Of a DNA stretch of 64,000 nt, positions 44,538-51,089 are shown in pieces (the stretch's first letter is position 1; each line of letters opens with the position of its first letter). This stretch comes from Escherichia phage TH12. The notes under the pieces were generated by a model. The model saw only the letters and a program-made list of their open reading frames with translations. It did no database searches and was not told where the DNA came from. Where the stretch lies: sequence record MT446390.1; one strand, given 5' to 3'. The translations under genes were made by a program, and so were the position numbers.

Positions 44538-45173
44538 ATGAAAACTACACCAATCACTATCGCTATTGACGCAATCGTAAAACAAGCTTCATCTCTTGCC
44601 ACTATGGCTAAAGTAATTAGTCAAAACTCTGCCCGATATAATGCTATTCTTGAAACTCTTCGTCGCCCTGGACTGAGTAATTATGAAAGCCGAGTAATTA
44701 TTACAGGTGTTGGTAAGAACGCTAATATCGCAACTAAAGCTTCCGAGACTTTTGCTTCACTAGGTATTCCTAGCATGTATTTGAACACCGGGCATTATTC
44801 TCATGGCGACGCAGGGTTTATTGCACCTAATGATGTATTAGTTCACATCAGTCGTTCTGGTAAGACTGAAGAAATGATAGGTGTTGCTAAACATCTTCGT
44901 ATGATTCGTCCTCAGGTTAAACAGATTCTGTTACATTGTAACCCTGACATTCCGCAAGAATACGAAGCTCTTTTTGATTATACGTTCTGTACAGGCATCG
45001 CGGTAGAGGTTGATGAGAATTCTCTGGCTCCGACCATGTCCACTACATTGTTGTTAGCGCTTATCGATACGTTTGCTATCAACCTTTCGTCTGAACGTGG
45101 ATTTACCTCTAATGACTTCCTTAAGTTCCACCCTGGTGGTGCACTAGGTGCCATGTTACGAGGCGAACAATGA
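44538..45173 (+). CDS. SIS-domain sugar-phosphate isomerase (arabinose-5-phosphate isomerase-like)
   Basis: SIS motifs ITGVGKN and SRSGKTEE. Confidence 0.7.
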   Translation: MKTTPITIAIDAIVKQASSLATMAKVISQNSARYNAILETLRRPGLSNYESRVIITGVGKNANIATKASETFASLGIPSMYLNTGHYSHGDAGFIAPNDVLVHISRSGKTEEMIGVAKHLRMIRPQVKQILLHCNPDIPQEYEALFDYTFCTGIAVEVDENSLAPTMSTTLLLALIDTFAINLSSERGFTSNDFLKFHPGGALGAMLRGEQ

Positions 45174-47040: not shown

Positions 47041-47426
47041 TGCACCGTGTAGAAAACATGCTTAATCTTTGTTTTGATGTCGATGATTGTATAACAGAGT
47101 GGAATAACAATCGTGATTACGTGAACTTCAAACCAGACGTCGAAATGGTGTCTGCCATTAATGCCCTGTATGATGCAGGGCATACCATAACGCTTTACAC
47201 TGCTCGTGGTATGAAGTCAGTAGGTCCTGGTCGTATAGCAATTGACATTCTCCCAAGTCTGATTCAGAACTTGGCAAACATTGGCTTGAAGTACCATAAT
47301 TTGCTAACACATAAACCAGTATATGATTGGATTATCGACGACAAAGCTATGCGTCCTGACGAATTCAAAGCTCTTATGAATAAAGGCGAATTCGAAACAT
47401 TTAAATCGTATAAACCGAATCTATAA
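47040..47426 (+). CDS. HAD-superfamily phosphatase-like protein
   Basis: HAD motif I FDVDDCIT near N-terminus; start may be 47025 or 47058. Confidence 0.55.
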   Translation: MHRVENMLNLCFDVDDCITEWNNNRDYVNFKPDVEMVSAINALYDAGHTITLYTARGMKSVGPGRIAIDILPSLIQNLANIGLKYHNLLTHKPVYDWIIDDKAMRPDEFKALMNKGEFETFKSYKPNL

Positions 47427-47484
47427 TAATTTAAGTAAGACCTGCAAAAAAACCATCGCATCAATTAACGCGAGATGCAAAAAA

Positions 47485-48645
47485 ATGAATACTTTTAAAA
47501 TCGGAACGAATTTTGATTTAGCTCTTCTTGATAAAATCGTAGAGCTCAATAAAACCTATCCTAATAGCTTGATAAACGAAGTATATGGCTCTACAAGAGA
47601 AATGGCTTTTGTAGCAGCCAGACCTGATTTTAGGCTTCCTGACGTTGACAAAAAGATGTTAGAAGACTACGTTAAACGTTGTAACGAATTAGGTATTTGC
47701 TTTAACTATACACTCAACACGATAAATCCTGGTTCAAAAAGAGAACTAGTTGAGTGGAAGAAGAAAGCTATTCAGGATTATGTTCAGTATCTTTGGTCAA
47801 TAGGCGTATGGCGTATTACTATCGCTAACCCTGTTGTTATGGAAATTGTTCGTGAAGTCAATAAAGATATTGAGATTGAAGTTTCAACAATTCTACATGT
47901 CGATGCGGTAACTCAAATCAAATACTTACATGACCAATATAACATCAAAAAGGTCTGTTGCGGAATTCATAAGAACCGTTCAGTTTCTTTCCTGAAGCGT
48001 GCAGCAGAGTTTTGCAATAAGAACAATATAATATTTGAAGTTCTTGTAAATGAGTTCTGTTCTAATGCTGGTAAAGGGTATACAACACATTGTAGTTATC
48101 GTGACTCTTGCTATATTTTCCATAGTACTGATGTTACAGCTGATGATGCTAAATCCTTAAATGGATATCCAATGCAACACTGCATTAAAGCTCGTGATAC
48201 AGACCCATTTAACTGGTTGAGAACTCGTTTTGTTCGTCCTCAAGATTTGAAACTTTATAATGATATTGGTATCACTCAATTCAAAGTTTCAGGACGTACA
48301 GGTAGCACAGACTACATTTTGAAAGTTCTTGAAGCATACGCTTCTGAAAAGTTTGAAGGTAATTTGTTAGAACTGTGGAAGCCTTTAGAGACTATTTTCA
48401 CTCTTGAAAATGAGACTGAGTTTTCACATACAGTAAATATTGAAACCTCTTTGTTAGATGGCTTTTTAGAAAAAAGGTGGTTCAGACATCCAGATTTTGA
48501 TTGTGCTAATGAAATCTGTGGGTCAACGTGTACATATTGTGAAAGGTATTATAAACGTCAATTATCTAAAAACGGGTTAGCAGAAAACTCCATATCTATT
48601 ATTGATATAACTAACTCTGATGACGCTTTGAGGTACCCGGAATGA
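47485..48645 (+). CDS. Cys-rich putative Fe-S enzyme (386 aa); weak peptidase-U32-like features
   Basis: YTLNT motif, C-terminal CxxxCxxC; family call is tentative. Confidence 0.35.
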   Translation: MNTFKIGTNFDLALLDKIVELNKTYPNSLINEVYGSTREMAFVAARPDFRLPDVDKKMLEDYVKRCNELGICFNYTLNTINPGSKRELVEWKKKAIQDYVQYLWSIGVWRITIANPVVMEIVREVNKDIEIEVSTILHVDAVTQIKYLHDQYNIKKVCCGIHKNRSVSFLKRAAEFCNKNNIIFEVLVNEFCSNAGKGYTTHCSYRDSCYIFHSTDVTADDAKSLNGYPMQHCIKARDTDPFNWLRTRFVRPQDLKLYNDIGITQFKVSGRTGSTDYILKVLEAYASEKFEGNLLELWKPLETIFTLENETEFSHTVNIETSLLDGFLEKRWFRHPDFDCANEICGSTCTYCERYYKRQLSKNGLAENSISIIDITNSDDALRYPE

Positions 48646-48881
48646 TTTCTAGAAAAAGTTTTAATTATAAACTTAACGAAGAGATTTTGACTATGAAACT
48701 GAACACTAACGAACAAATTCTTAAAAAGGCCCTTATGGGCCTGTTTGAAACCAAAGCGGCTAAAGTGATTAAAGAACCTGTTCAATTGGAATACTACACT
48801 GATGCATTCCTTCATAGTGTTCTTGGAAGTATAGATTCTGAAGCTTTACGTTATATCAACATTGTCAAGAAATTCAAATAA
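48642..48881 (+). CDS. hypothetical protein (79 aa)
   Basis: ATGA overlap. Confidence 0.45.
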   Translation: MISRKSFNYKLNEEILTMKLNTNEQILKKALMGLFETKAAKVIKEPVQLEYYTDAFLHSVLGSIDSEALRYINIVKKFK

Positions 48882-48923
48882 GCTTTATGAATTGAGTATA
48901 TAATAAATTGTATTGAGGTAAAT

Positions 48924-49640
48924 ATGGGAAAACATAACACAATGAAATATATCAAAGCCGCAGATTTTCAAACCGCATTTAAAGCAGTCAATCGTGAAAT
49001 TTTAGAAAACCCCGAATTCGTAACTGATTCTCGTATTGGACGTTGTAATGAAATTGGGTCTATGACAGTAGTTGTTGACACTCCATCATCATTCAAAATG
49101 ACCGACCCACGTATTAACCGCATCTCTTATGAATATGCCGAAGACTTCTGGAAGTTTATGATTTCTGGTGGTACCAACGCAGAAGAAGCGTTTAAGGCAT
49201 ATCCTAATGTCGCTAAATTTATTTCTAAACCAAAATCAGATGTTTTGCCGGCGAACTTCAACACTTTCTATGGTCCTCGCATTGCGGCCCAATTACCAAC
49301 TCTTCTAAAAGAACTTAAAGAAAAACCTAACTCTCGAAGAGTTGTGTTCCAAATTCTAGAAAGTTCTGATCAGGCTTTGCTTGATTCGGACGAAACACTT
49401 GAATATCCATGTACTGACTCAGTAACTTATTATATTCGTGATGGTAAGCTTTATACCCACTGTCATATGCGTTCTCAGAACTGTGCTGTTGTTATGCAGT
49501 TGGATTTTTATCTCCAAGGAAAATTACTTCATTATATCGCTAACGAATGTGGTGTAGAAGTTGGTGATTATACTCATACCATGGTAAGTGCCCATGTGTT
49601 TGAACGTGATTTTGATTATGTTAAAGGATTCCTTGACTAA
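48924..49640 (+). CDS. 42: thymidylate-synthase-fold pyrimidine hydroxymethylase (dCMP hydroxymethylase, gp42 position), divergent
   Basis: NSRR, YPCTD, MRSQN..D motifs; position between 43 and uvsX. Confidence 0.6.
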   Translation: MGKHNTMKYIKAADFQTAFKAVNREILENPEFVTDSRIGRCNEIGSMTVVVDTPSSFKMTDPRINRISYEYAEDFWKFMISGGTNAEEAFKAYPNVAKFISKPKSDVLPANFNTFYGPRIAAQLPTLLKELKEKPNSRRVVFQILESSDQALLDSDETLEYPCTDSVTYYIRDGKLYTHCHMRSQNCAVVMQLDFYLQGKLLHYIANECGVEVGDYTHTMVSAHVFERDFDYVKGFLD

Positions 49641-50539
49641 TGGCTATTTTCCGCGTACCAATCTTGAGTATGCGGTCTTATGAAACTGGACAGTATGCTA
49701 TCCTTAAGGATGGCAACTTCCAACTTCATTTGCACCGTGCTAATCCGGGTGATGTGATTACATATCCACGTAATGCATCTGATATTAAAGAATGCGAACG
49801 TCTTTTCCCAGAATTTAAGTTTGTTCCATTATGGTATAAAGATAACGCGTATAACACTCGTAAATATTTCTGGACTGAAAATGAATTTGTGGTTGATTCA
49901 TTAATTGATTATTATGATTGTGATTTTCTAATCACAGATATCACTGGTTATGGCGGCGCTTTTGATGTGGAATTCAATTTCAATATCACTGCAGACCCTA
50001 ATAAACCACGTTTTTATATTGATGAATTCTTAAAAACCGACATGTTGTCTGTTAATCGTTCACTTCAAACTACTGTGTTGAATGAACGTCAAAAAGGAGT
50101 GCTGGTTAACGCAGGTGCAGATGGTAATAAGATTATCGTAACGCAGAAAGTTATACGTCCTTCCATCATGCAGCGTCTTGTAGGTGATTTGGCTCCTATT
50201 CATCTAGATGGTATTTTTCATCCATTTCGAATTAGTGACCCATGTTATCGTTTTGAACAAGTGGTTGAATGTGCAATTCAATTAGGTCAACCGCTTTATA
50301 TAACCGATCCAAATAATAGCTTCGACAGAAATAAGTATCCTGAAGAAGCGCTGATTCGAATTTTTAAACCAACTAAAACTGAGTACTATCAAATTCTTAA
50401 AGGACGTCCGAAAATTCAATATTTCGAAAATCCTGAAGAAGTATTCCATCCAGGTCTTGGTGAGTTCATCTACTTTAATGCTTTAATTTCTTCGCCGTAT
50501 AATATACCTAAATACGAAGATGTCGTAATCGAGGAATAA
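49640..50539 (+). CDS. hypothetical protein (299 aa) at the T4 beta-gt position; candidate DNA glycosyltransferase
   Basis: Position only; no resemblance to T4 beta-gt. Confidence 0.35.
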   Translation: MAIFRVPILSMRSYETGQYAILKDGNFQLHLHRANPGDVITYPRNASDIKECERLFPEFKFVPLWYKDNAYNTRKYFWTENEFVVDSLIDYYDCDFLITDITGYGGAFDVEFNFNITADPNKPRFYIDEFLKTDMLSVNRSLQTTVLNERQKGVLVNAGADGNKIIVTQKVIRPSIMQRLVGDLAPIHLDGIFHPFRISDPCYRFEQVVECAIQLGQPLYITDPNNSFDRNKYPEEALIRIFKPTKTEYYQILKGRPKIQYFENPEEVFHPGLGEFIYFNALISSPYNIPKYEDVVIEE

Positions 50540-50540
50540 A

Positions 50541-51089
50541 ATGGCTAAAATTATTTTAGTAGACGGCCCAGATAATGCTGGTAAAACAACTTTCATTAAT
50601 GACATAATGGAAATTAGTGAAAGATATGTAAAGATTGATTTCCCTAAACGAACAGTTGATGGACGTTTCGATGTTAAGTCTCGAAATGAAGTTGGTTGTT
50701 TCGAAACGATGTTGAATTATTTAGACCCTACTAAGATTTATCTGTTAGACCGTGGATATATTAGTAACTGGGTTTATGGACGTATTCGACAAGATGCGGA
50801 CTCGGTTCTTGACGTTTATGAACAGGACTATGTTCGTCTTTGCCAAAACCATGATGTGTTCACAATTATTTTAACACGTAACGAAATGACTGAAAGTTTT
50901 GAAGACGACCTTATTACTTTGTCTTCATTCGGTTTTAATACAGTCGTTTCACATTTTGAAGAGTTTGCAATTCATAACAAAATCCAAACATATCAATTAC
51001 TTAATCATGATGGTGCTAACAAAGTTATAGGATTTAATGCAAGCGAACGTAATTGTTTGATTACAGAAATCATCAAATGGGCTCGTTAA
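50541..51089 (+). CDS. P-loop kinase-like protein (182 aa)
   Basis: Walker A DGPDNAGKTT at N-terminus. Confidence 0.5.
   Translation: MAKIILVDGPDNAGKTTFINDIMEISERYVKIDFPKRTVDGRFDVKSRNEVGCFETMLNYLDPTKIYLLDRGYISNWVYGRIRQDADSVLDVYEQDYVRLCQNHDVFTIILTRNEMTESFEDDLITLSSFGFNTVVSHFEEFAIHNKIQTYQLLNHDGANKVIGFNASERNCLITEIIKWAR

Follow-up and report, generated by a model that had tools for sequence, protein, structure and literature searches.

A U32-family protein of RB69-like phages as a candidate oxygen-independent pyrimidine hydroxylase

The gene considered here (47485..48645, + strand) lies in a 64,000-nucleotide stretch of Escherichia phage TH12 (MT446390.1), referred to in full as the window, and is the ortholog of RB69 gp50 (RB69p050). 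The phage is an RB69-like Mosigvirus, and the window is 98-99% identical to other phages of this kind, such as Escherichia phages CCU7 and p000v. The gene product belongs to a virus-specific subfamily of the U32 iron-sulfur proteins. Comparison of its sequence, gene linkage and distribution suggests, with a probability of roughly 0.55, that it is a prephenate-dependent, O2-independent C5 hydroxylase that would supply 5-hydroxy-dCMP beside gp48, the known O2-dependent enzyme. The observations are best explained by a viral, single-chain U32 subfamily that has an extra cysteine motif, acts on a DNA precursor and in many lineages comes with a prephenate supply of its own.

The gene is annotated as 'peptidase' in more than 200 genomes, and RB69p050 was earlier listed among the RB69-specific modification genes as having 'homologs among peptidases'. 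RB69 DNA contains arabinosylated 5-hydroxycytosine, not hydroxymethylcytosine; the pathway was worked out only in 2025-2026 and is based on the flavoenzyme gp48, an O2-requiring 5-hydroxy-dCMP synthase that incorporates 18O2 (PMC13326640). The first-pass annotation of the window had described the gene downstream of the U32 gene (48924-49640) as a hydroxymethylase. It is instead a hydroxylase, as its product is 98.7% identical to RB69 gp48 (PMC13326640), and the question therefore becomes why there are two hydroxylases. A full-text search of the literature, with He et al. 2026 and Mahler et al. 2025 outside its scope, found neither a proposal of a prephenate-dependent hydroxylase nor a linkage to chorismate mutase for these phages.

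Family membership and conserved residues

The open reading frame (ORF) starts with ATG and encodes a cysteine-rich protein of 386 amino acids, as the first-pass annotation had described; its 13 cysteines are at positions 66, 72, 158, 159, 177, 192, 203, 209, 233, 340, 345, 349 and 352. The same annotation had made a weak call of the U32 family, and a Pfam hidden Markov model (HMM) search, profile comparison and the fold all agree with it. The Peptidase_U32 model (PF01136) matched residues 94-286 with 42.2 bits against a gathering score of 22.4 (E=7.3e-11). Comparison by hhalign with a four-sequence profile of E. coli UbiU, UbiV, RlhA and TrhP extended the match to residues 10-335 (286 columns, E=1.3e-10, probability 96.9%), and the structure model has the U32-type TIM-barrel fold. 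The top match to a single-sequence profile was RlhA (E=2.7e-5, 203 columns), with TrhP (E=0.0033), UbiU and UbiV all weaker; the NCBIfam UbiU model gave only 18.5 bits against a cut-off of 440. Among PDB chains, a single-sequence search gave no match and a profile search only chance matches (BIM1, E=0.012).

The residues that are essential in RlhA (E161, C169 and C176) and in TrhP (E162, C170 and C177) (PMC6599085) have counterparts in the phage protein. C203 and C209 align in hhalign with RlhA C169/C176, TrhP C170/C177 and UbiU C169/C176, at a spacing of CX5C rather than CX6C, and RlhA E161 aligns with E190 in the pairwise comparison or with E185 in the four-sequence profile. C233 aligns with UbiU C232, a ligand of the UbiU cluster (PMC6747719). 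Three positions of the four-cysteine [4Fe-4S] motif (CX6CX15CX3/4C, or CX6CX16CX38C in UbiU) are thereby matched, by C203, C209 and C233.

In an alignment of 40 homologs (46-88% identity), these residues are invariant or nearly so. Ten of the 13 cysteines (158, 177, 192, 203, 209, 233, 340, 345, 349 and 352) are invariant, and the YTLNT motif that the first-pass annotation had picked out (residues 75-79, FNYTLNTINPG) sits in a block of invariant or near-invariant residues (F73, N74, Y75, T76, N78 and P82). The C-terminal C-x3-C-x2-C cluster reported in the same annotation is present as C345, C349 and C352 but was incomplete as described, since C340 precedes it and the motif is CX4CX3CX2C. It is proposed that this motif forms a second metal or Fe-S site. 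The features of the gene are as follows.

47485..48645, + strand: U32-family Fe-S protein, 386 amino acids, ATG start; ortholog of RB69 gp50 / RB69p050
48037..48183, + strand: U32 signature and cysteine region, residues 185-233 (E185/E190, C192, C203, C209, C233), all invariant or nearly so in the alignments; a probable [4Fe-4S] site, judged from sequence
48502..48540, + strand: four-cysteine motif C340-x4-C345-x3-C349-x2-C352, invariant in 40/40 aligned homologs and outside the U32 core (residues 10-335)
48613..48642, + strand: acidic C-terminal tail (...SDDALRYPE), conserved in the T4-like clade only and disordered in the structure model

In comparisons with homologous clusters from Serratia, Enterobacter, Yersinia, Proteus and Shewanella phages, the U32 protein was the most conserved cluster protein in nearly every case (82-86% identity, versus 37-89% for its neighbors). 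Residues 374-386 have pLDDT values below 50 in the structure model. Within them, at residues 377-386, the T4-like members end in (D/S)Dxx RYPE, and most distant homologs have no such tail, which might serve to dock a partner protein.

Chorismate mutase linkage, gene neighborhood and host range

An AroQ chorismate mutase is encoded directly 3' of the U32 gene, with a 4-nt overlap, in Serratia phage LC53 and Enterobacter phage Entb_45 (Pfam CM_2: 44.6 and 40.9 bits, respectively, against a gathering score of 27). The product of chorismate mutase is prephenate, and we know of no other functional tie between a U32 protein and this enzyme. Prephenate is the oxygen donor or a required cofactor of the known U32 hydroxylases (PMC10990095; PMC6599085). 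With a single exception, the 56 phage records found by a tblastn search with this mutase belong to T4-like phages that infect Enterobacterales or Shewanella. Across the T4-like loci examined it lies at most a few hundred bases from the U32 gene and the thymidylate synthase (TS)-like gene, and it abuts the U32 gene in several genera. The cluster order is changed in Shewanella phage Thanatos-1, where the U32 and mutase genes are still an overlapping pair.

The linkage extends to distant relatives. A protein search returned 263 relatives, which fall into a T4-like clade (76-88% identity) and a large clade of metagenomic proteins of ~360 amino acids (46-58%). Forty distant loci were analyzed, 31 from metagenomes and viral contigs and nine from genome bins and genomes; many of the 31 lie on contigs that are 127-466 kb long and encode a DnaE-type polymerase. 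The homologs considered for the mutase linkage come from unrelated large phages and metagenome bins and are only 44-55% identical. A mutase gene was beside or within ~2 kb of the U32 gene in 14 of the 40 (10/31 and 4/9, respectively). In four sequence-distinct loci (L043, L044/L045, L054 and L063) the mutase is fused C-terminally to a DAHP synthase, and the two fusions that were scanned (L045 and L054) matched Pfam DAHP_synth_1 with 112-125 bits and CM_2 with 39-65 bits. These fusions suggest that the phage boosts flux through the shikimate pathway to prephenate. They adjoin the U32 gene at the following positions.

L043, 8399-9430: DAHP synthase-mutase fusion
L045, 7290-8357: DAHP synthase-mutase fusion
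L054, 11076-12194: DAHP synthase-mutase fusion
L063, 6922-7956: DAHP synthase-mutase fusion

Two further loci (L015 and L033) have a stand-alone gene of the DAHP_synth_1 family after the U32 gene, which could encode a Kdo8P synthase instead.

The neighbor proteins of the distant U32 genes were clustered, and HMMs of the clusters were tested against the window. This revealed an RB69-type cassette beside the distant U32 genes, with glycosyltransferase 1 and its fused kinase family (E=1.8e-27 to the window gene), an AfhE-like bifunctional enzyme (E=5e-71) and an arabinose-5-phosphate isomerase (E=3e-28), and also a Tmk-like kinase, a HAD hydrolase/phosphatase and a MazG-like pyrophosphatase. No TS-family gene was detected by HMM within 8-10 kb of the U32 gene in any of the distant loci (0/40), in a database from which the same HMM recovered E. 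coli ThyA at E=1.7e-9. A collection-wide scan for gp48-type enzymes likewise found them on T4-like contigs only and on no contig of the U32-only kind, a weak negative because the scan depends on two short motifs. The distant loci thus have an acceptor-using glycosyltransferase and a pathway to its sugar donor, with no known hydroxyl-forming enzyme nearby, and the U32 protein is therefore the obvious candidate for this step. Neighbors of the U32 homologs include dCMP deaminase, kinases, ThyX, UDG, NT5C and deoxynucleoside kinase (dNK).

The distribution of the two types of enzyme was compared with the oxygen requirements of the hosts. Hydroxylases of the gp48 type occur in 373 phage records, which include 57 of Acinetobacter phages and 20 of Rhizobium phages, and also those of Agrobacterium phages. 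The U32 protein occurs in 221 phage records, all at an identity of at least 80%, and the hosts among the matches listed are Enterobacterales and Shewanella only; it was not detected for Acinetobacter, Rhizobium or Agrobacterium, the strict aerobes among the hosts of the gp48 type. The cluster of Acinetobacter phage Konradin has neither a U32 gene nor a mutase gene, and the same is true of the published DLP3 cluster (PMC13326640). Enterobacterial phages often carry both U32 and gp48-type genes. The U32-only form is found in bins and genomes that include Phocaeicola faecalis, Romboutsia, Erysipelotrichales and Gastranaerophilaceae. The O2-dependent enzyme alone in phages of aerobes, the U32 protein alone with anaerobes and both with facultative anaerobes is a three-way pattern that would be expected from an oxygen-independent isoenzyme, and it supports such an enzyme without settling the matter.

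The U32 protein is not strictly needed by every phage of a facultative anaerobe; such a rule was considered and rejected, as the Dhakaviruses of E. coli have none. The Dhakavirus locus analyzed (Escherichia phage dhaeg) contains a gp48-type hydroxylase, an AfhE-like enzyme, a phosphatase and a glycosyltransferase; it is without U32, chorismate mutase and detectable arabinose-5-phosphate isomerase genes, and a Tmk-like kinase gene occupies the slot of the Mosigvirus U32 gene.

The window itself covers a replication module of the T4 type (clamp loader, RegA, DNA polymerase, UvsX and gp41), and the cytosine-arabinosylation cluster known from RB69 is located between its polymerase gene and uvsX. 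The U32 gene is flanked by the following genes and by one promoter-like site.

44538..45173, + strand: arabinose-5-phosphate isomerase with a SIS domain (domain matches; PMC13326640)
45355..47040, + strand: bifunctional sugar kinase / nucleotidyltransferase, AfhE-like (domain matches; PMC13326640)
47025..47426, + strand: HAD-like sugar phosphatase, gp51 / AfhF-like (annotation matches; PMC13326640)
47400..47427, + strand: promoter-like match of the sigma-70 type, TTTAAA-16-TATAAT, immediately before the U32 gene (motif scan; weak)
48642..48881, + strand: 79-aa ORF (RB69p049 family, PHROG 8601), 4-nt overlap with the U32 stop; the slot of a small ORF and/or mutase in other genera
48924..49640, + strand: thymidylate-synthase-like 5-hydroxy-dCMP synthase, gp48 ortholog (Pfam Thymidylat_synt)
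49640..50539, + strand: DNA arabinosyltransferase 1, gp46:47 ortholog (PMC13326640); matched by the HMM of the distant-phage homologs that are joined with a kinase family
50541..51089, + strand: thymidylate-kinase-like nucleotide kinase, gp45 ortholog (annotation matches; PMC13326640)

RB69-type phages also encode an anaerobic ribonucleotide reductase (nrdD). The 79-aa ORF evolves much faster than the U32 gene (72-100% versus 99-100% identity among the sampled RB69-like Mosigvirus records). It was tried as a degenerate chorismate mutase and rejected, as it had no CM_2 or NCBIfam match, an hhalign probability of 0.1% and an empty result from hmmsearch --max, and as a homolog of it is found together with a true mutase in Yersinia phage TG1.

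Several features immediately upstream of the U32 gene vary or were sought there. The promoter match could be due to chance, because the scan gave fewer matches than shuffled controls, and no FNR-type site (TTGAT-N4-ATCAA) was seen when positions 47380-47484 were inspected by eye. A short inverted repeat, TCGCATCAATTAACGCGA (47456-47473), is located between the promoter-like site and the start codon, and a terminator scan flagged its minus strand. The poly-A tract before the start codon (47475-47487) is A7 here and A6 in RB69 (GAGATGCAAAAAA(A)ATG). In RB69 an upstream ATG is in frame and gives a protein of 389 amino acids (MQKMNT...); that ATG is out of frame in this window, and translation must therefore begin at the second ATG, which gives 386. 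A further A-run upstream (47446-47452) varies from A5 to A7 among strains.

Side observations were also made in the distant loci. A conserved run of genes for GP88 (PF17338), an S-adenosylmethionine (SAM) methyltransferase, a ~265-aa protein and U32, in this order, is present in the genome of a Phocaeicola faecalis isolate (L068 3044-7137) and in two metagenome contigs (L004 5135-9098, and L005), and the methyltransferase of L068 is fused to a guanylate kinase. The run may be a pathway of nucleotide hydroxylation followed by O-methylation. In L004 the U32 gene is followed by genes for NT5C, an NMN transporter, dNK, a radical SAM-SPASM protein, a second, faint U32-like protein and a nucleoside deoxyribosyltransferase. 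A radical SAM-SPASM gene followed by one for a ~380-400-aa protein also lies a few genes from U32 in several loci (L003 1-1454, L016 681-2839 and L004 12160-14360); the second protein has a faint U32 match in L004 and is glycosyltransferase-like in L016.

Proposed function and its alternatives

The first-pass annotation had suggested that a redox role in modifying a nucleic acid or a sugar was worth testing, and a nucleic-acid role of a U32-type enzyme gains support from the family assignment, the alignment of the residues essential in RlhA and TrhP and the chorismate mutase linkage. A mechanism for the phage enzyme can be proposed on the model of the published UbiUV scheme. Its substrate would be C5 of a cytosine ring, most likely that of dCMP, and it would yield 5-hydroxy-dCMP, as gp48 does. 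A [4Fe-4S] cluster would be held by C203, C209, C233 and probably C192, and the C-terminal CX4CX3CX2C site would pass two electrons from the pyrimidine to an acceptor. Prephenate would decarboxylate and give the oxygen of the new hydroxyl group, leaving phenylpyruvate. The phage kinases and polymerase would then place 5-hydroxycytosine in DNA, where the arabinosyltransferases would decorate it. A mononucleotide is favored as the substrate because the neighbors include nucleotide enzymes and the protein has no RNA-binding domains. The phage would have two neighboring hydroxylases, one aerobic and one anaerobic, in parallel to the host pairs UbiI/H/F and UbiU/V, and TrhO and TrhP.

A broader claim, for which the odds seem to us a little short of even, is that this is the first virus-encoded prephenate-dependent hydroxylase and the first U32 enzyme that acts on a DNA precursor. 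It would represent an ancestral, oxygen-free route to DNA containing 5-hydroxycytosine (or 5-hydroxyuracil), which would be the sole route in a large group of phages of strict anaerobes and would operate in enteric T4-like phages beside an O2/flavin enzyme that was acquired later.

If this is correct, the chemistry of prephenate as an oxygen donor reaches beyond RNA and quinones to DNA precursors and viruses, and the DAHP synthase-chorismate mutase fusions would rewire the shikimate pathway of the host toward an oxygen-atom donor. Gut bacteria that serve as hosts live largely without oxygen, and an oxygen-free hydroxylase would explain continued hypermodification, replication and escape from restriction and CRISPR; an enteric T4-like phage could hypermodify its DNA over the whole oxygen range. 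A sizeable hidden set of phages of anaerobes with glycosylated 5-hydroxypyrimidine DNA would be predicted, and phage-therapy candidates of the genus Mosigvirus may not act in the gut as they do in air. A compact, soluble single-chain enzyme with a simple substrate could also allow the in vitro reconstitution of U32 hydroxylation.

Several observations weigh against a prephenate-dependent nucleotide hydroxylase. The evidence is entirely comparative; it establishes the family, the fold, the conserved residues, the gene linkage and the phyletic pattern, whereas Fe-S binding, the use of prephenate, the substrate, independence of oxygen and the role in the phage are inferred. Hydroxylation in vitro is yet to be shown for any U32 protein (PMC10990095). 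The position of UbiU C193 / RlhA C192 is occupied by no cysteine, and the spacing of the first pair is not the canonical one; to judge from the alignment, an invariant C192, C177 or C158 could substitute for the missing ligand, with C192 the obvious candidate. The absence of a TS-like gene in the distant phages covers only ~10 kb around the U32 gene. The aerobe/anaerobe pattern rests on few independent lineages, and the Dhakaviruses of E. coli have the gp48 pathway without U32. In aerobic E. coli, gp48 and a kinase suffice for 5-hydroxycytosine in DNA (PMC13326640), and the U32 protein is therefore dispensable at least in air.

A further point on this side is that the Mosigvirus lineage has no chorismate mutase, and a profile search found none in the 64-kb window, where the sole match to the mutase profile, weak and fragmented (ORF +62890), is probably noise. 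The mutase gene lies between the U32 gene and the TS homolog in most other U32-bearing T4-like genera, and the Mosigviruses have a 42-nt spacer (window 48882-48923) where two related loci hold it (L001 6158-6502 and L002 6158-6397). Yersinia phage TG1 has a homolog of the 79-aa ORF between the U32 gene and a true mutase gene; it follows that the mutase gene was lost from the Mosigviruses, in which the small ORF persists. Following this loss, their prephenate would have to come from PheA and TyrA of the host.

The main alternative retains the same chemistry and changes the substrate to a polymer, either residual cytosines in newly made phage DNA or host or phage RNA (ho5C in rRNA, ho5U in tRNA). 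The characterized pyrimidine-directed U32 proteins do work on RNA polymers (PMC6599085), RlhA is the best pairwise match, and the chorismate mutase linkage fits equally well. However, the phage protein is a bare U32 barrel with a small cysteine motif; RlhA (653 aa) and TrhP (453 aa) have C-terminal domains that it lacks. Its homologs adjoin genes for dCMP deaminase, MazG-like pyrophosphatase, kinases, NT5C and dNK, and the gene is inside a DNA-modification cassette, beside glycosyltransferases that need a 5-hydroxyl acceptor. In addition, T-even phages remove dCTP from the pool, and replication would therefore need a route at the nucleotide level. Considering these points together, a polymer substrate is judged unlikely.

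The protein might also be a reductase acting on a sugar or heterocycle in the arabinosylation pathway, as it is labeled a 'sugar or heterocycle reductase' in Table 1 of Lee et al. 2026 (PMC13326640), a label that also speaks against prephenate-dependent hydroxylation. A TIM barrel with probable Fe-S sites, encoded between the sugar-activation genes and the hydroxylase gene, would suit such an enzyme. That paper offers no argument for the label and leaves the gene undiscussed in its text, the published pathway from ribulose-5-phosphate to UDP-arabinofuranose has no reduction step, and Acinetobacter phages produce poly-arabinosylated 5-hydroxycytosine without a U32 gene (PMC13326640). The recurrent linkage to chorismate mutase and DAHP synthase would also be left unexplained, and a reductase is accordingly considered improbable.

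The names in the databases favor a collagenase-like (PrtC-type) U32 peptidase that processes phage or host proteins: many records are annotated 'peptidase' or 'collagenase-like protease', and PHROG 5757 carries the name 'peptidase'. All of this goes back to the name of the family, the closest characterized members of which are hydroxylation factors, and ten invariant cysteines, the mutase linkage and a nucleotide-metabolism context fit a protease poorly, so that we give this function very little credence. Least credible of all is a radical-SAM-type enzyme, for although C345-x3-C349-x2-C352 has the classic radical-SAM spacing, the motif follows the barrel at the C-terminus, the fold is that of U32 and not the radical-SAM partial barrel, the HMM check proposed in the first-pass annotation gave no Radical_SAM or SPASM match at E<=0.1, and a fourth invariant cysteine, C340, completes the site outside the barrel and would leave no open iron for SAM.

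Comparison with characterized hydroxylases

The candidate nucleotide hydroxylase was compared with the characterized U32 proteins and with gp48. The U32 protein Mk0906 of Methanopyrus kandleri (PDB 5d88) has 247 amino acids and is 14% identical to the phage protein. RlhA (YdcP), the synthase of 5-hydroxycytidine at C2501 of E. coli 23S rRNA, shares the U32 domain, and its E161, C169 and C176 are matched by E190, C203 and C209. Its prephenate-dependent hydroxylation of cytosine at C5 is the chemistry proposed here (PMC6599085). RlhA has 653 amino acids, extra C-terminal domains and ribosomal RNA as its substrate, whereas the phage protein has 386 amino acids and ~20% identity to it. The cysteine motif of RlhA is CX6CX15CX3C (Cys 169, 176, 192 and 196); the phage protein has CX5C, is without the third and fourth positions and has gained the C-terminal CX4CX3CX2C.

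TrhP (YegQ), the prephenate-dependent factor for ho5U34 in tRNA, shares the U32 domain and the triad of one glutamate and two cysteines, and its O2-dependent partner TrhO makes the same product (PMC6599085). By analogy, it is proposed that the gp50/gp48 pair follows the logic of TrhP and TrhO. TrhP differs from the phage protein in its tRNA uridine substrate, its C-terminal U32_C domain and its aerobic partner, which is a rhodanese and not a thymidylate synthase homolog.

The hydroxylases RB69 gp48, DLP3 gp80 and that of HY126 are related to gp50 by place and proposed product, as gp48 belongs to the same cluster (~280 nt downstream in the window) and the same product is proposed for both. The two differ in fold and chemistry, which are unrelated (gp48 uses flavin and O2), and the activity of gp48 is experimentally proven (PMC13326640), whereas that of gp50 is a proposal.

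UbiU and UbiV are U32 Fe-S proteins that act on a small molecule, with prephenate as the proven oxygen donor (PMC10990095) and one [4Fe-4S] cluster per subunit (PMC6747719); their aerobic counterparts are the flavin monooxygenases UbiI/H/F. UbiU-UbiV is a heterodimer that works with the lipid-binding protein UbiT on a lipid substrate, whereas the phage protein is a single chain. By analogy, that chain may hold both metal sites and be a compact equivalent of the UbiU-UbiV pair.

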